A stretch of DNA of 64,000 nt from a virus, in the UHGV virus genome UHGV-0209088; one strand, 5' to 3'. How positions within the stretch are numbered: position 1 is the stretch's first letter; every line of letters starts with the position of its first letter. Shown in pieces: positions 8,899 to 56,121 of this stretch. Under the pieces are notes generated by a model. It did no database searches and was not told the DNA's origin. It saw nothing but the letters and a program-made list of their open reading frames with translations. The position numbers and the translations under genes are program-made.

Positions 8899-10188
8899 TC
8901 AGGCCGCTAACTTTACCGGCTCGCCGCTCCCGTTCAGAACGGCATCCAGCCACGCTGACCACTTATCCATGGCCGCTCGCTTCTCAGGCATATAATCCGC
9001 GCGGTCATAGTGCTTGCTGCCCGTGTCGTTCTGGGCGTGCTGCTGGATCAGGTCGCGGGTGAAGCGGTCGATACCGGCGTCCTTGGCCCGGGACTTCCAC
9101 GTCCGGCGCAGGTCGCGCGGCGTGAACGGTTCCATGCCCTCAATGACCGGATTGTAGCCATCCCCGCCGAAGGCCCGGCGAACGGCGTGGGAGACGCTGA
9201 CAGCCCCGAGGATTTCATCGGCGCTGTCCGAGCGGGCAGGGAAGAGGTATCCTTCGCCGTACTTGTCCTTCAGGCGCTTCAGGTCAGGGATGATGACATC
9301 GGGTAACGGAATATCGTGGGGGTACATCCGCCCTTTGGTCTTCTCTTTCGGCATCATCCAGAGCTTGGCGTCGAGGTCGATCTCGTGGCCTTCGATCCGC
9401 AGCGTCTCCTGCACGCGTTGTCCACAGGCAATCAGCATGCGCAATAGTATTTCAGTTCCTTCGCTGAAACCGAAGTTCCCATCCTGACAGCCGAACCAGA
9501 CCGTCTTGATCTCTTCGGCGCTCAGGTTCCGGTCGCGCAGGGTGCGGGCACCCGAATCCTTCGCCACGGCGGCGGCTGGATTCGTGGTCACGCCCCAGTC
9601 CTTACGCTCCTTGACCGTATAGTCATTGGCGGAGGTGATGGCCCATTCGAAGGTCGCCCGCAGGTAACTGCGCGCCTTGTCGGCTGCGCCGCGATTCCCG
9701 TCCTGGTAGTGCTTCGACACGAACTTGATGATGTCGTCAGGGGTGACCGTGGAGGGTGCCCGGTCGCGGCCAATGACATCGGCGGCGTTGTGTTTTGCCT
9801 TCAGGAGCACCCGCTCGACCTCGCTGGTCATGGCGATGTTCTTCGACTTCATGAAGGCGACCCGGGCCTCAAACATGGCCTCTAACGTAATTTCGTTTTT
9901 AACCTTCTCCTTGACCCGTTCACCCGCTGGATCGCCGCCCGCAGCGACCGCCAGAAAGACATCGCGGGCGAGGGAGCGCGCCTTATCCGGGGTGGTGTCC
10001 GAGACCCGGCAGAGGTTCATCTTCCGCTGCTTGCCGTCAGACTTGCGGCGGTACCGGACAACATATGTTTTCCGACCGCTCGACTGGATACGGACGCCGA
10101 ATCCCTGCAGCTCGCTGTCCCAGAGCCACGCATCGCCGGAGGCAGGTGCAACAAGGTTATCAATCGCAGTTTTTGTGATTTTCGGCAT
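8899..10188 (-). CDS. int: tyrosine integrase, P4-type, with an N-terminal DUF4102-like arm-binding domain
   Basis: N-terminus MPKITKTAIDNLVAPASGDAWLWDSELQGFGVRIQSSGRKTYVVRYR; catalytic-domain length and R...HxxR...Y layout. Start taken at the internal ATG with an AAGAGGG Shine-Dalgarno (+/-1 nt). Confidence 0.85.
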   Translation of the reverse strand: MPKITKTAIDNLVAPASGDAWLWDSELQGFGVRIQSSGRKTYVVRYRRKSDGKQRKMNLCRVSDTTPDKARSLARDVFLAVAAGGDPAGERVKEKVKNEITLEAMFEARVAFMKSKNIAMTSEVERVLLKAKHNAADVIGRDRAPSTVTPDDIIKFVSKHYQDGNRGAADKARSYLRATFEWAITSANDYTVKERKDWGVTTNPAAAVAKDSGARTLRDRNLSAEEIKTVWFGCQDGNFGFSEGTEILLRMLIACGQRVQETLRIEGHEIDLDAKLWMMPKEKTKGRMYPHDIPLPDVIIPDLKRLKDKYGEGYLFPARSDSADEILGAVSVSHAVRRAFGGDGYNPVIEGMEPFTPRDLRRTWKSRAKDAGIDRFTRDLIQQHAQNDTGSKHYDRADYMPEKRAAMDKWSAWLDAVLNGSGEPVKLAA

Positions 10189-10248
10189 AAAACCCTCTTT
10201 ACATTTTCGCTCTTCCGATCCTTCGACCGGGTGGATTTCCCCGCGATT

Positions 10249-10268
10249 TAGGGCGCAGCTAGGGCGCA
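10249..10268 (+). promoter_or_regulatory. TAGGGCGCA-gc-TAGGGCGCA direct repeat (11-bp register)
   Basis: Exact 9-mer repeated twice, 60 nt upstream of int. Confidence 0.5.
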
Positions 10269-10387
10269 AAATCCCGGGGTGTTGAGCGTTTTTAGAGGAA
10301 AGGCCGTGAATGGGTCAGAGTGTTAAACCATTGAAATCACGTCCAAAAAAGATTTCGCGTGACTTCCCGGTAAAGCGTGGTTTAAGA

Positions 10388-21102: not shown

Positions 21103-23904
21103 GTGATTATGAACAATGACCTCAGCAAAAAACTCAGCCTTTCAGAAACTATAGAGCAGTTCCGCGATGCCATGAGAGATCAGGGCATCGAAACGAAGAG
21201 CCATATCGAAGCTGACGGAAAACTTCATCGCTTCCACGTTGATGGCGATGCTAAAGGATCGCTCAACGGGTTCTACTGCCTGCATTTTGATGAGAAGCCA
21301 GCTGGCATCTTCGGGTGCAATAAGCGCTATGGCTTCGACAAAAAATTCCAGTGGCAGTCCAACCAGAAAACGCAGGAGTGGACACCGGAAGAGCGCGCGG
21401 CGTACAAGGCCCGCGTTGCGAAGGAGCGCGCCGAGAAGGACGCAGCTGAGAAAGCGCGTCATGAGGCTGCCGCCGCCGCTGCCAATGCCCTCTGGGAAGC
21501 GTCATCCGAAGCCTCGGACGATCACCCCTACCTGAAAGCCAAAGGCGTGAAGGCTCACGGCCTGCGCGTCGGTAAGTGGGAGAAGGTCAACAAGGATACC
21601 GGCGAGGTTCGCCTTATCAGCGATAACGCGCTGCTGGTGCCCATCTGCGACCGCACGCGCAAAATCCACTCACTGCAGGCTATCTTCCCGGCCAAATTGA
21701 AGGCCATGGGAGACCGCAACAAGGATTACCAGGCTGACGGTGCCAAGCGCGGCCTGTTCCACACCATCGGCAAACCGCTGATGCACGACGGCAAGCCCGT
21801 TTTCGTGCTCTGTGAGGGGTATGCCACCGGCGCGTCTATCCACGAGTGTACCGGGCACCTGGTGCTGGTCTGCTTCGACGCGGGCAACCTCCCGGTGGTG
21901 GCACAGGCCATCCACGATCGCATGAAGGCGTCGGGGAAAGAGGCTGTCATCATCCTGGCGGCAGATAACGACCGCTGGACCACGCAGCCAGTCGAGAACC
22001 CGGGCGTCTACCACGCGAAGAACGCCGCGAAGGCGGTCAACGGCCTGCTGGTAGTCCCTGATTTCGAGACCCTTGACGGGAACCCGACCGACTTTAACGA
22101 TCTGCACCTGCGGCAGGGTGCGGCGGCCGTTGCCAAGGCGTTTGATGAGACGCTGAACCCTCCGGCGCCGACAGAGGAAGATCTGCCGTGGGATGACACA
22201 CCGACCACACCGGAGCCGCCTCAACCGTCGCAGGATAAGCCACAGGATGACGAGTTCGAAGACGAGCTGGTGAAGAACACCTATTTCACCATTCTCGGCT
22301 ACGACGGCCCGACCTATTTCCTGTTCCAGCACGAGAAGCGTCAGGTGATGGACATCACCAAAAGCGATCTGTCCGATACCGGCCTGATTGAGCTCGCCCC
22401 CATCAACTGGTGGGAAGAGCATTTCCCGGGCGAGAAGGGTGGTATCGACAAAAAGGCCGCGGCAAACTGGCTGTTCCGTCAGGCCAACGCCCGCGGCATC
22501 TATGACCCAAGCAGGATCCGCGGACGCGGGGCCTGGAAGGACAAGGACCGCTATGTGTTCCACCATGGCGACCGCCTGACGGTTGACGGTGTGCCGACCG
22601 ATATAACCCGAATAGCCTCCGCCTATGTTTACCCGATGGCCCGGCGCATGCCGGAACCGGCAGAGAAGATGCTGACGGCTGAGGAAGGGCGGCACCTGCT
22701 GGAAGTCTCCAAGATGATCCGCTGGAGCATGCCTGCCTCTGCCCCGCTTTTCGCTGGCTGGGTTATGCTGGCTCCAATCTGCGGCGCGCTGAAATGGCGT
22801 CCGCACATCTGGCTGACCGGTCCTGCCGGTTCCGGTAAATCGACCATCCAGCGCGATTTTGCATGCGCGCTGACAGCCGGAGTGAACGTCTACGCTCAGG
22901 GTAACTCGACCGAAGCCGGTATCCGCCAGAAGCTGAAGGCTGACGCTATGCCTGTCCTGATGGATGAGGCCGAGTCGAACGATGATAAGGAGCGCGCGAA
23001 GATGGAGCAGATCCTCGCCATGATCCGGCAGTCATCGAGCGAGTCGCAGGCCCAGACGCTGAAGGGCACCATCTCCGGCAGCAGCATGAACTTTTCCATC
23101 CGTTCAATGTTCTGCCTGGCGTCGGTGAACACCAATCTGGACAAGAAGGCCGACGTGGACCGTCTGACCAAGCTGGTGATCCGGTCTCCTGACCCTCTGA
23201 ACGGCGCCGACCACTGGGACAAGCTGGGTGACGAGCTGCATAAGATCTCGACTGATGAGACCATCGCGAGCCGTATGCTGGCCCGGGCGTTGGTGATGCT
23301 CCCTACGATCCTGAAGAACGTTGATGTGTTCACCCGGGCAGCGGCCAGATTTTTCGGCAGCCAGCGCGAGGGCGACCAGTTCGGCACCATGATGGCGGGT
23401 GCCTGGTCTCTCTGCAGTGATGAGGTAGCGACCGATGAGCAGGCCGACAAAATGATGACCAGATACGACTGGGGCGAGCACACGGAAGACAACGAGCAGG
23501 ACGACGCAGAACGAGCCCTGGAAGCCGTCCTCGGTGCCAAGATCAGAATGGGCACCGCTGGTGATCTGACGGTCTACGAGCTGGTGAGAGAGAGCCTGAC
23601 GGCCTACAAGGAAATGGATAGCGTGACCGCAAAAGAGGCTGATGCAGCTCTGCGGCGCCATGGGATCCGCGTGGACCTGAAAACCGACGCGCTCCTGTTC
23701 GGAACGAGCGTTTCCAACCTGAAGAAGCTGGTGGAGAGAACCAGCTTTGTTACTGACCTGCGTGGTCAATTGCTGCGCCTGCCGGATGCTCACCGCAACG
23801 AGGACAAGGCGCTCTGGTTCAATGGTCACAAGTCCAAGTGCGTGGCGATTAAGCTCAGCCCGCTGCTGAAGGATGATTCAGGGCCGGAAGAGCTACCCAT
23901 CTGA
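21103..23904 (+). CDS. replicative primase-helicase (TOPRIM primase fused to a D5/P4-alpha-like ATPase)
   Basis: TOPRIM block VFVLCEGYATGASIHE...LAADNDRW; Walker A LTGPAGSGKST and Walker B VLMDEAES; 933 aa. Confidence 0.7.
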   Translation: MIMNNDLSKKLSLSETIEQFRDAMRDQGIETKSHIEADGKLHRFHVDGDAKGSLNGFYCLHFDEKPAGIFGCNKRYGFDKKFQWQSNQKTQEWTPEERAAYKARVAKERAEKDAAEKARHEAAAAAANALWEASSEASDDHPYLKAKGVKAHGLRVGKWEKVNKDTGEVRLISDNALLVPICDRTRKIHSLQAIFPAKLKAMGDRNKDYQADGAKRGLFHTIGKPLMHDGKPVFVLCEGYATGASIHECTGHLVLVCFDAGNLPVVAQAIHDRMKASGKEAVIILAADNDRWTTQPVENPGVYHAKNAAKAVNGLLVVPDFETLDGNPTDFNDLHLRQGAAAVAKAFDETLNPPAPTEEDLPWDDTPTTPEPPQPSQDKPQDDEFEDELVKNTYFTILGYDGPTYFLFQHEKRQVMDITKSDLSDTGLIELAPINWWEEHFPGEKGGIDKKAAANWLFRQANARGIYDPSRIRGRGAWKDKDRYVFHHGDRLTVDGVPTDITRIASAYVYPMARRMPEPAEKMLTAEEGRHLLEVSKMIRWSMPASAPLFAGWVMLAPICGALKWRPHIWLTGPAGSGKSTIQRDFACALTAGVNVYAQGNSTEAGIRQKLKADAMPVLMDEAESNDDKERAKMEQILAMIRQSSSESQAQTLKGTISGSSMNFSIRSMFCLASVNTNLDKKADVDRLTKLVIRSPDPLNGADHWDKLGDELHKISTDETIASRMLARALVMLPTILKNVDVFTRAAARFFGSQREGDQFGTMMAGAWSLCSDEVATDEQADKMMTRYDWGEHTEDNEQDDAERALEAVLGAKIRMGTAGDLTVYELVRESLTAYKEMDSVTAKEADAALRRHGIRVDLKTDALLFGTSVSNLKKLVERTSFVTDLRGQLLRLPDAHRNEDKALWFNGHKSKCVAIKLSPLLKDDSGPEELPI

Positions 23905-35316: not shown

Positions 35317-35483
35317 GGGTAGTTCCTCTTTATGAATGGAGGCCCATTGTCCCAGCGGGCGAAGCGGAACTTCAAATCGCATCCTCTATCGTCGCGATTG
35401 GCTGCGCTCATCGAGCAGCGGAACCGCCTGGCGCTCGCGGCGCGACACCACCGCCAAAGAGGCGCACGGCACGACGCAGCACT

Positions 35484-36030
35484 CAGTTCCACCTTTACCG
35501 CAAAGCATTGATTGCGCGCATAAACCTTATGGAACTGAAAACGGAACCAGCGCTCAGTTCCAGTTCCAGTTCCATCTACAGTTCCATTTGCTCAGCGGCT
35601 CATTAACGGAGGCGGAACTGCCAGCCGGAACTTCTGGCCGGAACTGCTGGTTCCGCTACGCAGATCAATAGCTTACGCTGATTACACCACCCCGTAAGCA
35701 TGAGTCAGTTCCGGGGCGGTTCCAGTATTTATCTATATAAATCAGGTGCTTGCTCAAAATTGATGAAATGGAACTGCTTTTTTGCGGAAAAATACAATAC
35801 CCATACATGTGTGTGAGTGGGGGTGAGGGTGTAACAGATTTGATCATGACACCTCATTCTCACGTAGTCCTATGTAGGGTGTAGAATTCAGTTCCAGTAT
35901 GTGTGTTTGTCTCTATATAATATATATATCTTATTGATAAATAATAATAATAATAATAGGAGGGGATGGAACTGGTGCCGGAACTTTGCCGGAACTGGAT
36001 GGAACTCAGCAGCACACCCAGTTCCATTAC
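35484..36030. repeat. iteron array: at least 20 GGAACTG/CAGTTCC hexamers or heptamers in both orientations around an AT-rich core with (TA)n and (AAT)n tracts
   Basis: Includes CAGTTCCAGTTCCAGTTCC at 35547-35565; GGAACTGccagccGGAACTtctggccGGAACTGctgGTTCC; GGAACTGgtgccGGAACTttgccGGAACTGgatGGAACT; AT-rich core 35921-35965; no ORF plausible. Confidence 0.7.
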
Positions 36031-36143
36031 CCGGAAATAGTAATAAACTCCCGCATTGTCACTAAAAATATTCCTAAATCTGTTCTCTACTTGCTCATTT
36101 TTGTTTTATACTCCCGGCATCACAGGTCAGTGGTGTCAACAGC

Positions 36144-36683
36144 ATGGTCGAATACTTCACGATTCCCGAGCTGCCCGATAAGCAAATGTTCAGATGCGAA
36201 CGCAGGAATGCCACTCTCCAGGTGGCTTCCTGTGCTTCCATGTGGAAGGCAGCCAACAGCAAGAACAGCGCCGAGTGCAACATGTCATGCCGGACTTGCA
36301 GTCTGGGTGCCGTGCATGCTGGTGAGGGCGACGCACAAATGTCCCACCTGCGTGGCATCGAGATCTGCTCGCGGTGTCATCGTGTCGGTATGCGCCTGAT
36401 AGGCGGTGATATCTGCGTCAGCTGCTGGAACAGGCAGAGGGAAGTCATCATCGGGAAGAATGCCCGCGGGCGTAAACCTCTCAACCATCCCCCCATTGTG
36501 CCGCACGAAATCACCGTCATGACCGGGAAGAAACTGGTCACCATCAAACGCACCCACGCGGTCTGTACCGAAGAGCTGGTTATCTCAGCACTGCGCGACA
36601 GCACCAGGCAGGTGTTCTTTGGGTTTCATTCGAAAGGTCAGACAGGTGTGCAGGCTATGCCTGTGCAGGGGGAATTGTTTTGA
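36144..36683 (+). CDS. Cys-rich putative zinc-binding protein (179 aa)
   Basis: Multiple CxxC pairs (CSRCHRVG...CVSCWNRQ); first gene to the right of the iteron region. Confidence 0.35.
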   Translation: MVEYFTIPELPDKQMFRCERRNATLQVASCASMWKAANSKNSAECNMSCRTCSLGAVHAGEGDAQMSHLRGIEICSRCHRVGMRLIGGDICVSCWNRQREVIIGKNARGRKPLNHPPIVPHEITVMTGKKLVTIKRTHAVCTEELVISALRDSTRQVFFGFHSKGQTGVQAMPVQGELF

Positions 36684-37033
36684 TGCAGAGTATGCAACAA
36701 TCCGAGGCGTTACAGTCAGATTCTGCAACGCTTAAAAAAAACGAGCAATGGGAGCTGGAGCCGCATATCTGCCGTCACTGCTTCGGAAGGCTGGTCTCCC
36801 GCCCGGTTCCTGGCGGTGCCCTGCGCATCTACCGCTGCAGCAACTGCGGGGCTGAGGCCCAGCACAGCCACGCCGACGCACTGTGCTGCTGCGGCATCAA
36901 GATTAAGCGCGCCGGACGCAACGGCACCAAATCGGGATCCATGGTCGATGCCGGCGTGCGGTGCATTCCGAACCCTGAGCGATCGCTGATGTTCCCGAGC
37001 GAGATTGTGGCCAGCGAGGTCGTGCGAAAATGA
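36680..37033 (+). CDS. Cys-rich putative zinc-ribbon protein (117 aa)
   Basis: CRHCFGRL...CSNCGAEA...CCCG. Confidence 0.35.
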   Translation: MMQSMQQSEALQSDSATLKKNEQWELEPHICRHCFGRLVSRPVPGGALRIYRCSNCGAEAQHSHADALCCCGIKIKRAGRNGTKSGSMVDAGVRCIPNPERSLMFPSEIVASEVVRK

Positions 37034-42228: not shown

Positions 42229-42849
42229 ATGACCGAACCGAAGAAACCAACCAGGGCGAGGAAAGCGCCCGCGAAACCCGGCGCCACAAAGGCGAGCGGG
42301 GTATCCGCTATTGGGCAGAAGGTCACCGACGCCGCCAAGACTGGCCGCCGTGGCTTTTCCGATGAGCTGAAAGCTGCCGCCCGCGCGCTGTGGGAGGGCG
42401 ACCCGAATATCAGCATGGCTGATGTCGCCGCAGAGGTGGGCGTCACCGTGCGCGCCATGCGGCGCTGGAGCCAGGATGAGAACTGGTCGAAGCGTCAGGC
42501 CGATATGTCCGAGCGCGCTCATGCGGCTGCCGACCAGTACAAGAACAAGCTCTCTGAGCTGGGGCCGGAGATCACCACCGAGCAGCAGAAGCAGGCCGAG
42601 TCCGACGCAGCGGAGGAGACCGCCGTGCAGCTGCGCGCCCAGGTGCTCGACCGCCACCGGAAGGAATGGAACGCGCCGCGCAAGCTCTCCTACGACGCGG
42701 TGAAGGCCAAGAACTTCGACCAGATGAAGATGGCCAAAATCACGGCTGAGGCGCTGACCCTGATCCAGAACGGCGAGCGCAAGGCGTGGGGCATCGATTC
42801 CGGGGGCGATGGGCAAACCAACGTGAAAGTCATTATTGAGCGTGAGTGA
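42229..42849 (+). CDS. HTH DNA-binding protein (terminase-small-subunit-like HTH)
   Basis: ISMADVAAEVGVTVRAMRRWSQDENW winged-HTH segment; basic N-terminus; coiled-coil C-terminus. Confidence 0.35.
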   Translation: MTEPKKPTRARKAPAKPGATKASGVSAIGQKVTDAAKTGRRGFSDELKAAARALWEGDPNISMADVAAEVGVTVRAMRRWSQDENWSKRQADMSERAHAAADQYKNKLSELGPEITTEQQKQAESDAAEETAVQLRAQVLDRHRKEWNAPRKLSYDAVKAKNFDQMKMAKITAEALTLIQNGERKAWGIDSGGDGQTNVKVIIERE

Positions 42850-44366
42850 TGGATAAAAACCTCGAAAAGATGCTGGGCTTCCGGCCTGATGCCATCCCGC
42901 AAATGCGGCTCAAGCCGGTTGAATCTCTGGTGGCCTACGCCCGCAACACCCGCACCCATTCAAAGGTGCAGGTCGAGCAGATCAAGCGCTCTATGCTGGA
43001 GTTCGGATGGACGAACCCCATTCTGGCGGATGATATGGGCATCGTGGCCGGGCATGGTCGCGTTATGGCTGCCGAAGAGCTGTACAAGGCCGGTGAGCAG
43101 ATCCTCTTCCCGAACGGCACGCCGATCCCCATCGGCCAGGTGCCGGTCATCGATTGCACCGGCTGGTCAGACGCGCAGCGCCGGGCGTACATCATCGCGG
43201 ATAACAAGCTGGCCCTGAACGCCGGCTGGGACGATGACATGCTGAGCCTCGAGCTGAAGGAGCTGGACGCGGCGGGCTATGACCTGGATGTCATCGGGTT
43301 CGATGAGAACGAGCTCGCGGAGCTGCTGGCCGATCCCGAGCTGGATCTTGATAGCGACAAAGACCCGGATGAGACACCGGACCTGCCTGATGCGCCGGCG
43401 AGCCGCGAGGGCGACACCTGGATCCTCGGCGCGCACCGGGTTCACTGCGGCAGCGCGACCAGTATGGATGCATGGGACCACCTGATGCAGGGCGAACTGG
43501 CCAACGCGGTATGGACCGACCCGCCATACAACGTCGATCTGGGCCTGAAGAACAAGCGGATGGATAAAGCCATTGGCGGCGAGCGGTTCGCCACTGGTGC
43601 GATCGCCAACGACAAGATGAGCCTGGAAGAGTTTGAGGCGCTGCTCTACGACGCGTTCAGCTGCCTGTTCTCGGTCATGCAGGCAGGGGCGGCCATCTAC
43701 GTGGCCCATTCCGACAAGGCCGGGCGCGAGTTCCGCGAGCAGTTCGAAAGGGCTGGCCTGCACTTTAGCCAGATGCTCATCTGGAAGAAGAACGTCCACG
43801 TTCTGGGGATGGCCGATTTCCAGCCCATTCACGAGCCGATCATGTACGGCTGGAAGAAGGGGAGCCGTCACAAGTGGCACGGCGGCCGCAAGCAGACCAC
43901 CGTCATGGAGATAGGCGAGGGCGGTCCGATCTCCCGGGATGAAGCCGGGCGCTGGCTCATCAAGGTGGGTGACAGCGTGCTGGTCGTGGACGGCCAGGCG
44001 GAACTGGCGGAGATCCCCTCGACCGTGTTCAATGTGCCGAAGCCGGAGAAGTCCGGCCTGCACCCGACGCAGAAGCCGGTGGAGCTCATCGAGCGCATGC
44101 TGCGCAACTCTGCCCGCGGCGGCGATATCGTGGTGGATGCGTTCGGCGGTTCGGGCTCAACGCTGATTGCCGCTGACCGTCTGGGCATGTGCGCCAGGCT
44201 GATGGAGCTGGAGCCGCGCTTTGTCGATGTCATCGTTCGCCGCTGGCAGGACTACACCGGGCGCCGGGCGGTTCACGCGCTCACCGGCGAGGAATTCCCC
44301 GAAGAGGGGCAGGAGCGGAAGACCGGCCCAATCCTCACCGACAACAGCGATACGGATGTGTTTTAG
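42846..44366 (+). CDS. ParB-like nuclease domain fused to an N4-C/N6-A DNA methyltransferase
   Basis: ParB N-domain (AYARNTRTHS...GHGRVMAA); MTase motif IV DPPYN; C-terminal SAM-binding region FGGSGST. Confidence 0.75.
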   Translation: MMDKNLEKMLGFRPDAIPQMRLKPVESLVAYARNTRTHSKVQVEQIKRSMLEFGWTNPILADDMGIVAGHGRVMAAEELYKAGEQILFPNGTPIPIGQVPVIDCTGWSDAQRRAYIIADNKLALNAGWDDDMLSLELKELDAAGYDLDVIGFDENELAELLADPELDLDSDKDPDETPDLPDAPASREGDTWILGAHRVHCGSATSMDAWDHLMQGELANAVWTDPPYNVDLGLKNKRMDKAIGGERFATGAIANDKMSLEEFEALLYDAFSCLFSVMQAGAAIYVAHSDKAGREFREQFERAGLHFSQMLIWKKNVHVLGMADFQPIHEPIMYGWKKGSRHKWHGGRKQTTVMEIGEGGPISRDEAGRWLIKVGDSVLVVDGQAELAEIPSTVFNVPKPEKSGLHPTQKPVELIERMLRNSARGGDIVVDAFGGSGSTLIAADRLGMCARLMELEPRFVDVIVRRWQDYTGRRAVHALTGEEFPEEGQERKTGPILTDNSDTDVF

Positions 44367-52053: not shown

Positions 52054-55000
52054 TTGCGGCCAGTATGTATGCGACTCGTTCTCCTCAAAGCTCAGAAGTT
52101 TGCCAACCAGGCGGGTTATTACCTGCTGAACGGTCGTTGGCACAAAACCTCGCAGGATAAGCCTGCTCCGAAAGGCGCGCCGGTTTCCGCGCATCCTCAC
52201 TCCGCGGGTAAACCCGTCGCGAAAGAGACGCTGGCTGACCACGAGTGGCAGCAGCTGCAGCTCCCTGCCGAGAACGTCAACGCGAAGACCTTCAACAAGC
52301 AGCTCGACCAGCTCAAAGCGGCGGCCGTCGCCGGTGACGTGACTGGCATTCTGGGAAGCGGCTATGGCACGAACACCTACGGCAAAAAACTCGCGATCAT
52401 TGCGAACCACGTTCTCGGGCTGCTGGGCAGTGACCATAAGGTTACCCCGGGCCAGAAAGCTGGCACGCACGCCGCTGTGCAAACCGCGCCAGAGATCGAG
52501 GCAGAAGCGCCAGCGCCGAAGCCGGAGCCAAAAGCAGAGCCGGAGCCGAAGGCCGAAGAGAAACCTGCAGCGCCGGCGCCGGAGAAAAAGGCCGACGCAG
52601 AACTGGCGGTGCCGGAGTTTGCCGAAGGCAAGCAGGCCAAAGGCGTGAAGGCCCACTACGAGAAGGTGGCGAAGAAGATCATCCGCGCCGCCAAGGCCGG
52701 TGACCTGTCTGCGCTCCAGTTCATGGCAAAACCTGACCAGACGAGCTGGAAGGGTAAGACCGACAACAGCAAGAAGCTGATAGCGCTGCACCAGGCGGCG
52801 ATCGCTTACGCTCAGGCCAACAAGCCGGCTGGCAAAGACATCCAGCATCCGGACGCGGAGAAGCAGGCCGCGAAGGAGGCGAAGGAGCTCGCGAAAGAGC
52901 AGGGCACTCCTGAGAAGGCACCAGAACCGGAGAAGAAGCCGAAGCCAGCCAAAGCGGAAGAGCCGAAATTCACCGACAAGGGGACGCTCGCCAATCCGTC
53001 CGGATACGGGAAGACTTTCGCCAACCTGAAACAGGCCAACGCCGCGGCTGAGAAGCTGAAGGCGCAGGGGCATGATGTCTATGTCACCGCGCAGCACCCG
53101 TATCAGGTGAAACTCAATAAGCCGGAGCCGAAGCAGGAAGCCAAACCAGATCCGAAGCCGGAGCCGGCGAAGCAGGAAACCAAAGAACAGCCTAAAGGCG
53201 ACGCAGCCGGCAAGCTGTCCCAGATCCCGTGGGACAACCTGCTGCTGCCGGACAGCAACAAGAACGCCAAGAGCCACAACAAGCAGGTCGCCAAGATTAA
53301 GGCGATGGCTGAGGCTGGCGACATCGAGGGGCTGAAAAACTTCAAGGCTGGCACCAACACCTACGGCAAGAAGCAAAACCTGCTGGCCCAGACTGCACTG
53401 GCGGCGCTGGAAGAGTCTGCGCCTGCACCCAAGGCTGAGGAGAAGGCAGCGCCGGATGAGAAGCCGAAGGCCGCTGAACCTGCCGCCAATGGGTTGCCGA
53501 AGAAGCCGGACAACGCCGGTAAGTGGCAAGACACGGTGGATGCGCTGGAAGGTTGGGCGAAGAGCGGCAATCTCACCGAAGCCGAGAGCATGTATTACGA
53601 CCTGTATTCGCTGGTCGATGAAATGCCGGACGCAATGCCGATCCTGCACTACGCCCAGGATGTGGTCTCTCACATCAAGAAGGCTGGGGCAGAACAGGGT
53701 GGCAAGCCGCAGAAGCCGACCGGCCTCACCAGCGTCCACTGGAACTCGACCGTCAACGAGATCGAAGCGCAGATGGAGGCCGGGAACGAAGCCTATCTCC
53801 AGACCAAGGTAGAGCAGACTGCTGGCCTGGCGTCTGCCGAAGCGAAGTCTGTACATGATTACGCCGTTGGCGCGCTTGGGTTCGTGCAGGACCAGAAGCA
53901 GGGCAACAGCGCCAGCACCGAAAACGACGGCCCGATGGAAGGGGAGACCAAGCAGGGCGCGAACGGCACGCTCGTGTTCCACAATGGCCGCTGGCACAAA
54001 CAGGGCGATGAGAAGGCGGCAGAGAAACCGGCGCCAGCTGGCCCGGCTGATGTCGAGATCCCGACCTTCAACGGCCCCAATGCCACCCATAACGCGTGGC
54101 TGCAGAAGGCCGCTGAGGCGCTGAAAGAGAAGGTGGTTTCCGAGGGCAAGGACGGCCTGAAACAGCCGCTGACGAACCACAAGAATGGCTCGGTAACGGT
54201 CAACATCGCTGGCGTGAAGGTCGGCAAGGCCAGCGTGACCAGCTCAAACCCCGCGATCGCGAAATTCGCCCAGTTCGTGGATGAGCTGAAAGCCTCTGTC
54301 GGCAAGGTGAAGAAGGCCAAGCCGGCACCGAAGGCGACGCAGGCTCCAGCGCCGGCCGCCGAGCCGGAGCAGCCGAAGCAGCTCGAGAGCATGGACAGCT
54401 GGACGCAGACTGGCGGCCAAGGCGGTTCGAACCCTGGCGGGAAGTTCAAGGACGAGAACGGCGTCGAGTGGTACTGCAAGTTCCCAGAGAACGACCATAT
54501 CGCGAAGGCCGAGGTGCTGGCCGCGAAGCTCTACTCCGCGCTGGGCCTGAACGCTCAGGATGCGAAGCTCGTCACCAAAGATGGCAAGGTGGGCATCGCC
54601 AGCCGCTGGGTGAACGTCAAGAAAGCATCTCCGAAAGAGCTGGCCCAGACCCCGGGCGTTCTCGAAGGCTTCGCCGCTGACGCGTGGCTCGCGAACTGGG
54701 ATGTGGTGGGTCTCGGCTTCGATAACCTGCAGGTGGATGACCAGGGGCACGCCATGCGCGTCGACGCTGGTGGCTCCCTCATGTACCGGGCTCAGGGCAG
54801 CAAGAAGGCGTTCGGGGAACACGTCACCGAGCTGGACAGCCTGCGCGATCCGAAAATCAACCCGCAGGCGGCCGCAGTGTTCGGCCAGATGTCTGAGGCT
54901 GACATCACGGCGTCGGTGGCGAAGGTCGCGCAGATCTCCGATGCGCAGATCCGCATCATGGTGAACAACTTCGGCCCGGGCGATAAGGCCGAGCGGAAGG

Positions 55001-56121
55001 CGCTGGCTGAGACGCTGATTGCGCGCAAGAACGACCTGATCGCGAAGTACCCGAAGTCCGTGAAGGTCAAGAAGAAGCGCCTCGACCCGGAAAACCTGCC
55101 GGTGAAAGAGGATCGCCTGCCGAAAGAGCACGACTTCGCCAACTGGAACGGCCCGGGCGCCGGTCTGTCAGGGAAGGCTCACGTCAACGCCGCCAACCAG
55201 AAGGTTGAGAGCGAGATGCTGGCCATCGCGAAATCGGGCAACCTGACCAAGCTGAAGGACTACAAATTCCAGCCGGTTGACATTGCCACGGGCGAACCGA
55301 AAGGCGAACCGATCCCGGTGGGCCAGCACCCGTCGAAGCATGTGCAGCAGTTCCACCAGGACCTGATTCAGGCGCTGGATGAAATCGCGAACCCGCCGCA
55401 GCCGCTGAAGATCTTCCAGGAATCCGACCTGAACACGTTGGATGAGCTGGATATGGCCTTCCCGTCGAAGAAATTCGGCACGACGGTCAACGCCGTTCAT
55501 TCGAACGAGAAGATGGGATTTTGGGTGGTTCTCGGCGGCGTCCACAAGGCGGCCGAGAAGTTCATGCCGAAGAAGATCACCCACTTCACCACTCAGGCTA
55601 TCGACGCGGCCTACCAGAAGTTCAAGGAGGGTTCGAAGCTGGCGAAGCACTTCGTTCTCTCCGTGCAGGCGTCAGGCAGCTACAACGACCTGTTCCGCGA
55701 GGGCAAGGAGACGGACCACGCCGGGAACAAGCTGTCTGATGTGGCGAAAGCCGCGATGGAGTTTGCCACCGAGCAGCCGGAAGGGACGACCGTCTACCGC
55801 TGGCAGCACATGACCAAGGACATGGTGGACAAGATCATGAGCGCGCCGGACGGTACGGTGTTCCAGGCGACCGGCCCTATGTGTACCTCGATGTCGCCTA
55901 CGGCCACCTCGCACTTTGGCCCGCACCGGATCACCATCCATTACGCGAAGGGTGCGAAGGCGGTCGAGAGCTTCGGATCCGGCAAGTTCGCGGGCGAGAA
56001 GGAAGTCACAACGTTACCGAACAGCCGGTTCGTCATTCTCAAGAAAGAGATGGTCCCGGCTGGCAGCGGGAAACGCATGGAGCTGGAAGTGCTTATGCTT
56101 CCGCCTGACCTTGGGTTATAA
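52054..56121 (+). CDS. giant multidomain protein (1355 aa): N-terminal tandem repeats, kinase-like motif set, C-terminal ADP-ribosyltransferase-like (R-S-ExE) domain
   Basis: Repeated ~45-aa modules ending NTYGKK; Pro/Glu/Lys-rich PEPK linkers; GGQGGSNPGGKF / WYCKF / DAWLAN / RVDAGG (kinase-like); VYRW ... CTSMS ... AGEKEV (Arg-Ser-ExE ART triad). Start codon uncertain (TTG at 52054 or ATG at 52069). Confidence 0.45.
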   Translation: MRPVCMRLVLLKAQKFANQAGYYLLNGRWHKTSQDKPAPKGAPVSAHPHSAGKPVAKETLADHEWQQLQLPAENVNAKTFNKQLDQLKAAAVAGDVTGILGSGYGTNTYGKKLAIIANHVLGLLGSDHKVTPGQKAGTHAAVQTAPEIEAEAPAPKPEPKAEPEPKAEEKPAAPAPEKKADAELAVPEFAEGKQAKGVKAHYEKVAKKIIRAAKAGDLSALQFMAKPDQTSWKGKTDNSKKLIALHQAAIAYAQANKPAGKDIQHPDAEKQAAKEAKELAKEQGTPEKAPEPEKKPKPAKAEEPKFTDKGTLANPSGYGKTFANLKQANAAAEKLKAQGHDVYVTAQHPYQVKLNKPEPKQEAKPDPKPEPAKQETKEQPKGDAAGKLSQIPWDNLLLPDSNKNAKSHNKQVAKIKAMAEAGDIEGLKNFKAGTNTYGKKQNLLAQTALAALEESAPAPKAEEKAAPDEKPKAAEPAANGLPKKPDNAGKWQDTVDALEGWAKSGNLTEAESMYYDLYSLVDEMPDAMPILHYAQDVVSHIKKAGAEQGGKPQKPTGLTSVHWNSTVNEIEAQMEAGNEAYLQTKVEQTAGLASAEAKSVHDYAVGALGFVQDQKQGNSASTENDGPMEGETKQGANGTLVFHNGRWHKQGDEKAAEKPAPAGPADVEIPTFNGPNATHNAWLQKAAEALKEKVVSEGKDGLKQPLTNHKNGSVTVNIAGVKVGKASVTSSNPAIAKFAQFVDELKASVGKVKKAKPAPKATQAPAPAAEPEQPKQLESMDSWTQTGGQGGSNPGGKFKDENGVEWYCKFPENDHIAKAEVLAAKLYSALGLNAQDAKLVTKDGKVGIASRWVNVKKASPKELAQTPGVLEGFAADAWLANWDVVGLGFDNLQVDDQGHAMRVDAGGSLMYRAQGSKKAFGEHVTELDSLRDPKINPQAAAVFGQMSEADITASVAKVAQISDAQIRIMVNNFGPGDKAERKALAETLIARKNDLIAKYPKSVKVKKKRLDPENLPVKEDRLPKEHDFANWNGPGAGLSGKAHVNAANQKVESEMLAIAKSGNLTKLKDYKFQPVDIATGEPKGEPIPVGQHPSKHVQQFHQDLIQALDEIANPPQPLKIFQESDLNTLDELDMAFPSKKFGTTVNAVHSNEKMGFWVVLGGVHKAAEKFMPKKITHFTTQAIDAAYQKFKEGSKLAKHFVLSVQASGSYNDLFREGKETDHAGNKLSDVAKAAMEFATEQPEGTTVYRWQHMTKDMVDKIMSAPDGTVFQATGPMCTSMSPTATSHFGPHRITIHYAKGAKAVESFGSGKFAGEKEVTTLPNSRFVILKKEMVPAGSGKRMELEVLMLPPDLGL

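Follow-up and report, generated by a model that had tools for sequence, protein, structure and literature searches.

A non-coding module at positions 35383-36143 of the 64,000-nucleotide stretch of phage DNA analyzed here, referred to below as the window, may well be a replication origin loaded by the primase-helicase encoded at 21103-23904, an assignment to which we give slightly better than an even chance. The window belongs to a temperate phage of about 90 kb, in the group of Aeromonas ST4, Bordetella PHB04, Morganella Mecenats66, and E. coli ECML-606-1. Sequence comparison with relatives most favors an origin composed of iterons and an AT-rich unwinding element, which the primase-helicase would bind; we consider a packaging (pac) site, an operator array, or a centromere less probable. 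The layout is known from other elements and appears not to have been described previously for this phage family; in the literature found on the group of about 85-100 kb (PHB04-, Mecenats66-, Dolphis-, ST4-, and ECML-606-1-like), no replication origin is described.

Repeat Cluster and Base Composition

The repeat cluster reported in the original prediction is real and unlike shuffled controls, and the triple repeat, clusters, and AT tract that had been quoted from it all lie where they had been placed. Within 35383-36143, GGAACT is present in 17 copies, whereas 2000 first-order Markov resamples contained 0.27 on average and never more than 3; post hoc choice of the word does not explain this number, because the commonest hexamer of any kind reached at most 7 copies in any resample. 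On both strands of the 64-kb window, GGAACT occurs 52 times (24 ± 5 in shuffles), with 19 of these copies in 35321-36025, and GGAACTG occurs 31 times (8 expected), 14 of them in the region. The core 5-mer GGAAC is found 21 times in 35383-36143 and about twice per 761 bp in the rest of the window, and no other 800-bp interval contains more than 2 repeat copies, leaving 35383-36143 as the sole such cluster. The GGAACT copies at 35321 and 35366 are probably not iterons, since they fall within the leader and ribosome-binding site of the leftward gene, sequences that are kept in relatives with other words. The features discussed in the text are as follows.

35383-36143, no strand: whole non-coding module, candidate replication origin, with 17 GGAACT and a GC trough, homologous in most relatives
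35486-35723, no strand: distal (left) iteron array, 13 GGAAC-core copies in both orientations
35555-35573: triple CAGTTCCAGTTCCAGTTCC, contiguous CAGTTC-CAGTTC-CAGTTCC in the distal array
35614-35654: distal-array cluster GGAACTGccagccGGAACTtctggccGGAACTGctgGTTCC
35770-35776, plus strand: isolated spacer iteron GGAACTG
35859-35879, plus strand: conserved box CTCAC(G/A)T...TAGGG, recognized by eye, immediately left of the core
35889-35895, minus strand: proximal left iteron, reading CAGTTCC along the top strand, oriented opposite to the right array
35910-35959, no strand: AT-rich core, proposed DNA-unwinding element, with (TA)n, cttattgata, and six AAT (35940-35957)
About 35914-35957: AT tract tatataatatatatatcttattgataaataataataataat
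35960-35966, plus strand: G-run GGAGGGG, separating the AT core from the right array
35968-36006, plus strand: proximal right array GGAACTGgtgccGGAACTttgccGGAACTGgatGGAACT, four direct GGAACT(G) at spacings of 12, 11, and 10 bp
36019-36025, minus strand: terminal inverted iteron closing the right array, the same copy being present in most relatives
36107-36112, plus strand: TATACT box (-10-like), putative promoter element before the Cys-rich gene
36144-36683, plus strand: Cys-rich protein gene, always directly downstream of the module
21103-23904, plus strand: TOPRIM primase/P-loop helicase of 933 aa, proposed trans-acting initiator

The sharp fall in GC content that had been claimed is confirmed, with values of 0.365-0.415 across 35700-36100 compared with 0.57-0.65 in the flanks, and 35903-35942 is 82% A+T. 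The flanking genes are likewise as described, with start positions of 35316 for the leftward gene and 36144 for the Cys-rich gene, which runs rightward. Mechanical ORFs of 100-111 aa overlap the left part of the region, but in annotated relatives no coding sequence covers the iteron arrays, apart from a short ORF of fHe-Yen8-01 that is not clear of them. Short annotated ORFs are present inside the interval in Touem01 and fHe-Yen8-01, and only that of Touem01, located between the iteron arrays and the Cys-rich gene, is clear of the arrays. An Rfam scan of the region returned no RNA family at E values up to 1; the region contains one terminator-like hairpin, itself built from iterons, and the module contains one IHF-like match. 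No DnaA box (TTWTNCACA) is found in the module, which counts against the origin reading. GC skew, which had been suggested as a check, is uninformative as evidence for an origin: the cumulative minimum of the window falls at 35693, but it coincides with divergent transcription, and the extremes of ST4, ECML-606-1, and phiT5282EW are located away from the module.

Conservation of the Module in Related Phages

Nucleotide searches with the region against phages, E. coli genomes, and plasmids gave no match, and relatives were reached via protein searches only, comprising 55 IMG/VR loci and 5 further contigs in addition to the named phages. The module is found upstream of a homologous Cys-rich gene in most of these approximately 60 relatives, and among named phages in ST4, ECML-606-1, fHe-Yen8-01, Dolphis, Jeremy, Touem01, PHB04, and Mecenats66. 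Its parts follow in the order of distal array, conserved box, iteron pair, AT-rich tract (often a trinucleotide repeat), G-run, and a phased set of 3-5 oppositely oriented iterons, and it persists where the left-flanking genes differ or have the other direction. A single iteron cluster per genome is found in the window, ST4, ECML-606-1, and phiT5282EW.

Distal arrays equivalent to that of the window, which includes three direct GGAACT(G) at 13-bp spacing (35614-35646), are present in ST4, Dolphis, Touem01, ECML-606-1, and fHe-Yen8-01, and the CTCAC(G/A)T...TAGGG box was recognized by eye in the window, L235, ST4, L236, L242, Dolphis, and PHB04. Left of the core, the window has one perfect proximal iteron and its relatives a pair at 7-10 bp; the nearest iterons to the left and right of the trinucleotide tract are oppositely oriented in 18 of 19 scored loci. 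Trinucleotide tracts of four or more tandem units were found in the upstream regions of 20 of 40 relatives, compared with 1 of 40 coding controls, the unit differing between phages (AAT, CTA, TAC, and TTC). An AGGGG/GGGG-type run occupies the position of the G-run in several relatives, including ST4, Dolphis, L019, and L165, and the GGGGG of ECML-606-1 lies farther from the trinucleotide tract. On the right, the spacings of 12, 11, and 10 bp would place the copies roughly on one helix face, and the array of the window, GGAACTttgccGGAACTG, is homologous, position for position, to the GCTAC(C/T) array of ST4, GCTACTttgccGCTACCA. The TATACT box is kept in ST4, ECML-606-1, fHe-Yen8-01, and L235-L238.

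Apparent Covariation of the Repeat Word with the Primase-Helicase

The repeat word differs between phages, including GGAACT, GCTACC, GTAACC, GTAACT, GATACC, GGAACG, GGAACA, GTGACA, GCGACC, and GGTACA, all of which match 5'-GNNAC, with AAAACC or TTAACC at a few loci. In L044 and L046 the region is 86-88% identical, yet the word is altered in every copy, and such a change of all copies implies selection by a sequence-specific binder. The closest relatives of the window, with primases 87-91% identical to its own, retain GGAAC, and relatives with primases 72-73% identical have GTAACC or GCTACC. Dolphis and Jeremy have the same iterons, and their primases are 86-100% identical per block, except for one linker block at 68%.

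ECML-606-1 (word GGAACGG) and phiT5282EW (word GTGACAG) are 90-98% identical across most of 95 kb. Among the segments in which they diverge are the iteron region and, within the primase, the middle and C-terminal portions, with identities of 26-36% over the linker and 28-45% over the last ~150 aa. The L010/L195 contig combines a phiT-type primase (86-100% per 50-residue block, mostly at least 96%) and phiT-type iterons with an ECML-type Cys-rich gene (99% aa), and the ~7-8 kb between its primase and iteron segments are equally similar to both phages. From these sequences the iteron word appears to track the primase allele in the near-identical ECML-606-1, phiT5282EW, and L195, with few independent switches; the ECML-606-1/phiT5282EW contrast amounts to two alleles with 12 divergent segments genome-wide, and the chance that both segments differ is about 15% by itself. 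Across 25 phages, same-word pairs had higher primase identity after regression on Cys-protein identity (permutation, p = 0.002 and 0.007), and their C-terminal-domain identity showed no excess over helicase-domain identity (p = 0.83), the latter result counting against the primase as reader.

The primase matches Pfam Toprim_3 (E = 2.5e-8) and phrog_35358 'DNA primase', with a weak P-loop/DUF5906 match (E = 0.003), and the model of its C-terminal domain suggests a weak winged-helix-like fold. Sequence and profile searches against PDB returned P-loop noise only, with no match to structures including 1KA8, and no residue-to-base code was derivable from alignments of the C-terminal domain. In the window, 11.5 kb separate the end of the primase gene (23904) from the start of the module (~35383), a distance that counts against the origin reading. 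L165 is the sole adjacent case and counts in its favor, its module being bordered by the primase terminator on one side and by the Cys-rich gene on the other. The fHe-Yen8-01 record annotates the primase as particle-associated.

The alternative that survives best, although we consider it unlikely, is an origin read by a protein other than the primase, either a small DNA-binding protein or a host factor, with the primase covarying by linkage or protein-protein matching. It draws on the putative recognition helix TDLRGQLLR of the primase C-terminal domain, which is invariant across word classes and counts against the primase reading, on the absence of covariation specific to that domain together with the weak fold evidence, and on the linker (aa 350-500), which is as divergent as the C-terminal domain. 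Against it, none of 12 small proteins from other ECML-divergent segments has a homologue in the window or ST4, whereas the primase has one; tail-fibre segments and a DNA methyltransferase are divergent too, and the other small genes divergent between ECML-606-1 and phiT5282EW have no DNA-binding annotation. Between the swap partners, the block carrying the SF2 helicase and SSB genes is ~94% identical in DNA sequence, and phage-specific words go beyond what a host factor can explain. The adjacent Cys-rich protein, which had been put forward as a possible binder and has no fold match, is excluded as the specificity determinant by its 99% identity in two phages with entirely different words.

Two further candidates were set aside. 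ECML_042, beside the presumed terminase gene, is divergent but tail-fibre-like, with a C-terminal chaperone-type motif recognized by eye. The HTH gene adjoining the module in ECML-606-1 and phiT5282EW was rejected as a general binder because the two phages share one and the same putative recognition helix and the window has no homologue of the protein.

Proposed Mechanism of Initiation

The module is best read as an origin of the self-loading-helicase type, as in SaPI/PICI satellites and phage P4. The 933-aa primase-helicase would bind the GGAAC(T) iterons, probably via its C-terminal domain, and the oppositely oriented proximal iterons flanking the AT-rich tract at 35910-35959 would place helicase rings to melt the tract. 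The rings would then load on the single strands, and synthesis would be primed for the host polymerase, the sole basis for host-polymerase dependence being the absence of a DNA polymerase from the ST4 annotation. The role of the distal array (35486-35723) may be to raise the local concentration of initiator or to regulate firing. Conservation of the module, the concerted change of words, and allele tracking all favor the iteron origin bound by the TOPRIM primase-helicase that had been proposed; that replication fires at the module, that the primase is the binder, and that this domain reads the DNA are what we infer.

A more speculative combination, improbable as a whole, would have the specificity programmable, with a fixed 5'-GNNAC frame in which the two central bases are read by a few loop/wing residues of the C-terminal domain, so that the replicons of sister phages would be orthogonal and the trinucleotide core, (AAT)n, (CTA)n, or (TAC)n, would serve as a phased single-strand track for helicase loading, similar to DnaA-trios.

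Comparison with Known Origins

The C-terminal winged-helix domain of SaPI Reps reads penta- or hexanucleotide iterons, and SaPI origins contain 6-12 iterons with an AT-rich center and at least two iterons per side in opposite directions (PMC9371898); in E. coli PICI origins, an AT-rich region lies between two iteron sets (PMC6092414). In both, specificity is matched to the element's own helicase-initiator, and the primase is fused or adjacent (PMC9371898, PMC6092414). The window and its relatives share with these elements many short iterons in two sets around an AT-rich region and the opposed orientation across the center in 18 of 19 loci (in the window, four right and one perfect proximal left). 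The word appears to track the primase-helicase allele, although with few independent switches and no signal specific to the C-terminal domain. Unlike these satellites, the present element is a ~90-kb temperate phage, its origin is not immediately downstream of the initiator gene but, in the window, 11.5 kb away, and its AT core is often a trinucleotide repeat; SaPIs further differ in having 6-12 iterons, compared with ~20 and a large distal array here.

The alpha protein of P4 is a single polypeptide in which TOPRIM primase and P-loop helicase domains are joined to a C-terminal domain that binds DNA (PMC2777425). The window protein has Toprim_3, a weak P-loop/DUF5906 match, and a putative DNA-binding C-terminal domain. 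The P4 origin consists of short repeats in both orientations, of which the type I repeat, TGTTCACC, resembles the TGTTCC of the window; a literature search with this octamer returned primer sequences only. In contrast to P4, the words here are 5-7 bp rather than 8, and no sequence match to the alpha domain 1KA8 was obtained. A counterpart of the second cis site of P4 (crr), mentioned in the original prediction, was not found, there being one cluster per genome in the four phages named above.

In the core origins of SV40 and papillomaviruses, inverted arrays of penta- or hexanucleotides stand beside an AT-rich tract, and the origin-binding domain of the helicase reads these sites, forming two head-to-head hexamers. 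The present module belongs, unlike these, to another domain of life and other protein families, and the helicase class of the window protein rests on the weak DUF5906/P-loop match. The order of bacterial oriC, namely boxes, a G/C-rich run, trinucleotides, and an AT-rich region, is matched here by four iterons, GGAGGGG, and six AAT, and the complement of the ST4 (CTA)5, read 3'-5', is GAT, which we take to be the DnaA-trio consensus. Unlike oriC, however, the module lacks DnaA boxes, and perfect trinucleotide tracts are present in only 20 of 40 relatives, with varying units. Classical iteron origins (lambda O/ori, P1 oriR, and plasmid Rep) are similar in that initiator-type repeats lie beside an AT-rich unwinding element, but their iterons are direct repeats of 17-22 bp, recognized by dedicated Rep/O proteins and usually accompanied by DnaA boxes, whereas the words here are 5-7 bp, in both orientations and at variable spacing. 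No Rep/O homologue was found in the ST4 annotation or among the scanned proteins of the window.

The phage group is widespread, with many metagenomic relatives. If the assignment holds, the SaPI/PICI/P4-style origin with a self-loading primase-helicase would extend to large temperate phages, and the group would offer a natural series of matched initiator/iteron pairs, one or two bases apart, suited to the study of how initiators read DNA and how replicon specificity, including the incompatibility of co-infecting relatives, evolves. It would also provide a simple annotation signature for origins in genomes of the group and help to tell the origin from the nearby packaging start of Mecenats66.

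Less Likely Alternatives: Transcriptional Control, Packaging, and Partition

A phage regulator could instead use the repeats as operators to control the early promoters of both operons, leftward and rightward, which we regard as improbable. The region parts divergent operons in the window, the Cys-rich gene has the conserved TATACT box ahead of it, the module of ECML-606-1 and phiT5282EW directly borders a Cro/YdaS-like HTH gene, and initiator sites frequently serve as operators too. However, ~20 sites over 600 bp around an AT-rich core form an atypical operator layout, and a strict sigma-70 scan of the region found no consensus promoter. The structure of the module is also kept where the upstream genes are co-oriented and terminator-ended, and it is therefore not tied to divergent promoters. 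As for the regulator, the helix of the HTH protein is identical across different words, with no homologue in the window, and the family has its repressor-like gene at a distance of 18 kb.

A pac site, at which the small terminase subunit would bind the iterons and the large subunit would cut nearby for headful packaging rightward, has a poorer standing still. Known pac sites, such as the hexamers of P1 and pacL/pacR of SPP1, are also arrays of short repeats, and this likeness counts in favor. The validated preferred packaging start of Mecenats66 is position 1 of its record (PMC9503643), which lies 14 nt before the stop of the Cys-rich gene homologue, and Touem01, with the PhageTerm call 'Headful (pac)' (PMC11256456), has its record end 12 nt past the same stop. 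These positions place the cut to the right of the module and ~0.5 kb into the Cys-rich gene, counted from its start, at the 3' end of that gene; the corresponding positions in the window are about 36670-36695.

The cut is at least about 0.55 kb to the right of the nearest iteron, a relation that counts against the origin reading and, the cut being outside the array, may count against the pac reading as well; no conserved motif is evident at the two cut positions. A distance of over 20 kb separates the module from the large terminase gene (~30 kb around the circular map in ST4, or 58 kb in record coordinates; in the window the gene lies beyond position 60.3 kb), and no small-subunit gene was found. 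The iterons of ECML-606-1 and phiT5282EW are entirely different, yet their 33-kb structural block is 97.8% identical, although the presumed large terminase gene in this block is assigned by size and position only and the comparison covers the large subunit. The word appears to go with the primase allele instead, and the symmetric inverted layout around an AT-rich trinucleotide tract is a feature of origins. The terminase site suggested originally retains mapped cuts near the module in two relatives, but not covariation with the terminase block. Under the primase-loaded origin, the origin-bound complex might also mark the packaging start, because the fHe-Yen8-01 primase is annotated as particle-associated and the cut lies ~0.5 kb from the origin.

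Partition is very improbable: a parS/parC-like centromere of a plasmid-like prophage, bound by a ParB-domain methyltransferase or another segregation protein, would be in keeping with the short-repeat arrays flanking a promoter in type Ib/II centromeres and with the ParB-like domain fused to the methyltransferase at 42846-44366, but such fusions are common phage proteins not known to bind centromeres, the one in the window lies 6.7 kb from the module, and no par operon stands beside the module, where the neighbors are a 118-aa protein and the Cys-rich protein, both without family matches. The family encodes an integrase, with a tRNA beside it in ST4, so that integration rather than plasmid maintenance is expected, and the idea of a plasmid prophage was dropped on finding the family essentially absent from the plasmids of PLSDB. 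A ParA-like gene has been reported in Touem01 (PMC11256456), which counts for a centromere; against it, the window and ST4 have different words although their ParB-methyltransferases are 81% identical.

Iterons and base composition of the non-coding region

The non-coding region at 35383-36143 is probably a replication origin, and the fuller explanation in which its iterons are read by the primase-helicase of the same genome is somewhat favored. Read this way, the element is of a known kind, an iteron origin for a self-loading primase-helicase. The main features are as follows.

8899-10269 (- strand), integrase
21103-23904, TOPRIM primase/P-loop helicase, 933 aa
24640-33880, leftward accessory block
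35383-36143, repeat region (the module)
36144-36683, Cys-rich gene
36680-37033, second Cys-rich gene
52054-56121, 1355-aa ORF

The repeat features of the original prediction, copies of GGAACT(G) surrounding an AT-rich tract, are present as described. On both strands of the 64-kb window, GGAACT occurs 52 times, compared with 24 +/- 5 in shuffles, with 19 of these copies lying within 35321-36025, while GGAACTG occurs 31 times (8 expected), including 14 copies in the repeat region. Inside 35383-36143, the 17 copies of GGAACT far exceed the density of Markov resamples of the region (n = 2000; mean 0.27, maximum 3), and since the commonest hexamer of any resample reached 7 at most, the excess is not caused by post hoc choice of the word. 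The 5-mer core GGAAC has 21 copies there, and no second repeat-dense 800-bp window was found, all others containing at most 2 copies. The GC content of the repeat region is 0.37-0.42, compared with 0.57-0.65 in the flanks, and A+T is 82% over 35903-35942. Two outlying copies of GGAACT, at 35321 and 35366, are located in the ribosome-binding site and leader of the leftward gene and are probably not iterons, because these sequences are conserved in relatives using other words. A conserved TTCAAATCG leader (35371-35379), found in the window, ST4, and the related loci L236, L238, and L242, adjoins the start of the leftward operon.

Placement of the window in a phage family

Based on the primase-helicase and the Cys-rich protein, the window is assigned to a family of ~86-96-kb phages, including Aeromonas ST4 (amino-acid identity of 71-72% for the primase and 82% for the Cys-rich protein), Pseudomonas Dolphis, Jeremy, and Touem01, Bordetella PHB04, Morganella Mecenats66, Yersinia fHe-Yen8-01, E. 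coli ECML-606-1, and Enterobacter phiT5282EW. The window and ST4 are collinear through the baseplate genes, lysis, integrase, replication module, and variable accessory block, and then through the repeat region, methyltransferases, and a giant ADP-ribosyltransferase-like gene, ending at the genes that directly precede the terminase. Because this synteny continues on both sides of the integrase, the window is a genome in unintegrated form rather than an integrated prophage junction.

The integrase is only ~32% identical to that of ST4, compared with 50-85% for neighboring genes, probably reflecting a different integration site. Between the primase and the repeat region, the accessory block is nearly without an ST4 counterpart although both flanks are collinear; it is a hypervariable cargo region. 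The C-terminal ~800 aa of the 1355-aa ORF, which is unusually large among phage accessory proteins, are homologous to ST4_109, annotated as an ADP-ribosyltransferase. No DNA polymerase is listed in the ST4 annotation.

Conserved architecture of the module

In every GenBank relative, a non-coding region of 0.5-1.2 kb is present upstream of the Cys-rich gene, and the order of its parts is kept in all of them except Mecenats66, where the repeats are few and degenerate.

Table. Parts of the module, in order
1. Distal short-repeat cluster, with copies in either orientation
2. Spacer carrying a TATATA / CTCACA...GGGG box
3. Repeat pair, 7-10 bp apart
4. AT-rich tract, often of trinucleotide units: (CTA)n, (TAC)n, (TA)n then (AAT)n or (ATT)n
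5. Short G-run
6. Three to five direct repeats, spacing 10-13 bp, with an inverted copy at the end
7. Conserved TATACT box, then the Cys-rich gene

The same arrangement is observed in most of 55 IMG/VR loci found via the Cys-rich protein and five further contigs; in one locus, L165, the module directly follows the primase terminator. A trinucleotide-repeat core, noteworthy for its frequency, is present in 20 of 40 loci and in 1 of 40 coding controls, and the iterons nearest this tract on its left and right are oppositely oriented in 18 of the 19 loci scored. The structure is intact in ECML-606-1 and fHe-Yen8-01 even though their upstream genes are co-oriented, with a terminator at the end, and the module is therefore not simply a divergent-promoter region.

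Variation of the repeated word

While the architecture is conserved, the repeated word varies from phage to phage.

Table. Repeated words and the phages or related loci (L numbers) carrying them
GGAACT(G): window and its closest relatives L235, L238
GTAACT: L236, L237
GTAACC: L242, Dolphis, Jeremy, Touem01, many others
GCTACC: ST4
GATACC: PHB04, L024, L048
GGAACG: ECML-606-1
GGAACA: fHe-Yen8-01
GTGAC(A/G): phiT5282EW, L010
GCGACC and GCAACC: L019
GGTACA: L058

The right arrays of the window (GGAACTttgccGGAACTG) and ST4 (GCTACTttgccGCTACCA) can be aligned position for position, which fixes a common frame, 5'-G-N-N-A-C-Y, that fits nearly all words; it is noteworthy how widely the word switches inside this single GNNAC frame. 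L044 and L046 share 86-88% identity across the whole region, yet one has GGTTTT at all copies and the other has GGTAAC. That all copies change together, with the intervening DNA kept, implies that they are read by one sequence-specific protein with shifted specificity. L019 (1850-2400) contains two repeat families in one module, GCGACC distally and GCAACC(A) in the proximal arrays and far left, which may represent a specificity-switch intermediate or a dual-specificity origin.

Candidate iteron-binding proteins

The complete genomes of ECML-606-1 (GGAACGG) and phiT5282EW (GTGACAG) were compared. Across most of the 95 kb their identity is 90-98%, and 12 segments differ, including two tail-fiber regions, several small accessory genes, the iteron region, and the primase gene. 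Identity between the two primases is 70-86% in the N-terminal part, 26-36% in the linker (aa ~350-500), and 28-45% in the last ~150 residues. One contig (L010, also L195) is a natural recombinant, with phiT-type iterons, an ECML-type Cys-rich operon, and a primase matching that of phiT5282EW at 86-100% per 50-residue block (mostly at least 96%); the ~7-8 kb between its primase and iteron segments are equally similar to both phages. The Cys-rich protein, which the original prediction had named as a possible binder, is excluded by its 99% identity between ECML-606-1 and this contig (GTGACG) despite their different words.

Since the frame and architecture are common to the family, the binder must be as well, and twelve small proteins from the other divergent segments have no homologues in the window or ST4, whereas the primase does, leaving it as the sole candidate among the proteins tested. 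A partly divergent DNA methyltransferase falls outside this set, and an origin read by another protein is considered unlikely. Further observations agree with the primase as the reader, including the position of the module in L165. Dolphis and Jeremy have both primase and iterons in common, and GGAAC is kept in relatives of the window with primases 87-91% identical, with other words found in those at 72-73%. In a permutation test of 25 phages, which ignores phylogeny, same-word pairs had higher primase identity after allowing for Cys-protein identity (p = 0.002, 0.007). The proposal of an iteron origin read by the primase-helicase is supported by architecture, layout, and co-variation of word and primase, but not by an excess of the C-terminal domain over the helicase domain in the same test (p = 0.83).

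A likely helix of the primase, TDLRGQLLR, is invariant, and variation is mostly found in the loop and hairpin after it (LPDAHRNEDK..WFNGHKS in GGAAC phages, IPNATNFDNK..RFNGHAS in L240, and LDGADRYDNK..KFNGHNS in ST4), with 5-6 of 9 hairpin residues differing between L046 and L044; no recognition code could be extracted from these differences.

At 1284 aa, the primase homologue P0152 is longer by ~350 aa and contains a LAGLIDADG_3 (PF14528) domain, suggesting that an intein or homing endonuclease is inserted in the primase gene. The fHe-Yen8-01 record (L008/L068) labels the primase 'phage particle associated', which suggests that virions may carry the initiator; the same label is given to several products of the operon that follows the Cys-rich gene, among them the second Cys-rich protein and an anti-restriction protein. 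A Cro/YdaS-like HTH gene lies directly beside the module in phages of the ECML-606-1 type (L002 3060-3485, L195 19850-20428), its product having a conserved N-terminal HTH and a C-terminal half that differs in all three sister genomes.

Proposed origin mechanism

The layout of the module is that of SaPI origins, which comprise 6-12 iterons and an AT-rich region near the center, with at least two iterons per side in opposite directions; the SaPI Rep helicase, whose C-terminal winged-helix domain recognizes these penta- or hexanucleotide iterons, melts the origin and is self-loading (PMC9371898). In E. coli PICIs, an AT-rich region is located between two iteron sets and the pri-rep-ori unit is functional (PMC6092414), and in P4 alpha a single chain contains primase, helicase, and a C-terminal winged helix (PMC2777425). 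Given this layout and the opposite orientation of the nearest iterons, the proximal iterons (35889-35895 and 35968-36025) would be bound by primase-helicase molecules, which would melt the tract at 35910-35959 and load in opposite directions before priming synthesis, with the distal array (35486-35723) possibly acting as a reservoir or regulator.

No DnaA boxes, Rfam match, or consensus sigma-70 promoter were found in the region. GC skew, proposed earlier as a check, was uninformative: the cumulative minimum of the window, at 35693, coincides with divergent transcription, and the extremes in ST4, ECML-606-1, and phiT5282EW are not at the module. No replication origin is described in the papers on Mecenats66 (PMC9503643) and Touem01 (PMC11256456).

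Alternative functions of the iterons

An operator array is quite doubtful given the number and arrangement of sites, the independence of the module from promoter orientation, and the lack of a family-wide regulator adjoining it. A pac recognition site, also raised in the original prediction, gains from cuts mapped near the module in two relatives, a proximity that is itself noteworthy. The preferred packaging start of Mecenats66, validated experimentally (PMC9503643), precedes the stop codon of the Cys-rich gene homologue by 14 nt, and Touem01, a headful (pac) phage per PhageTerm (PMC11256456), is opened 12 nt past the same stop codon; the equivalent position in the window is ~36670-36695, at the 3' end of the Cys-rich gene. 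The nearest iterons lie at least ~0.55 kb to the left of this cut, and the two cut positions have no evident conserved motif. However, the iterons are entirely different between ECML-606-1 and phiT5282EW, whose 33-kb block of structural genes and presumed large terminase gene is 97.8% identical, and the word follows the primase allele instead, making this reading improbable. A ParB-type centromere is highly improbable: no par operon is present, the family encodes an integrase, plasmid records contain essentially none of its members, and the methyltransferase to which the ParB-like domain is fused has 81% identity between the window and ST4 despite their different words.

An 8-A run (cttaaaaaaaacg) is located at ~36728-36738, ~50 nt into the second Cys-rich gene, and runs of 6-9 A occur at a similar offset in ST4, ECML-606-1, fHe-Yen8-01, Mecenats66, and PHB04; the run may simply be Lys-Lys codons or may be a slippery site.
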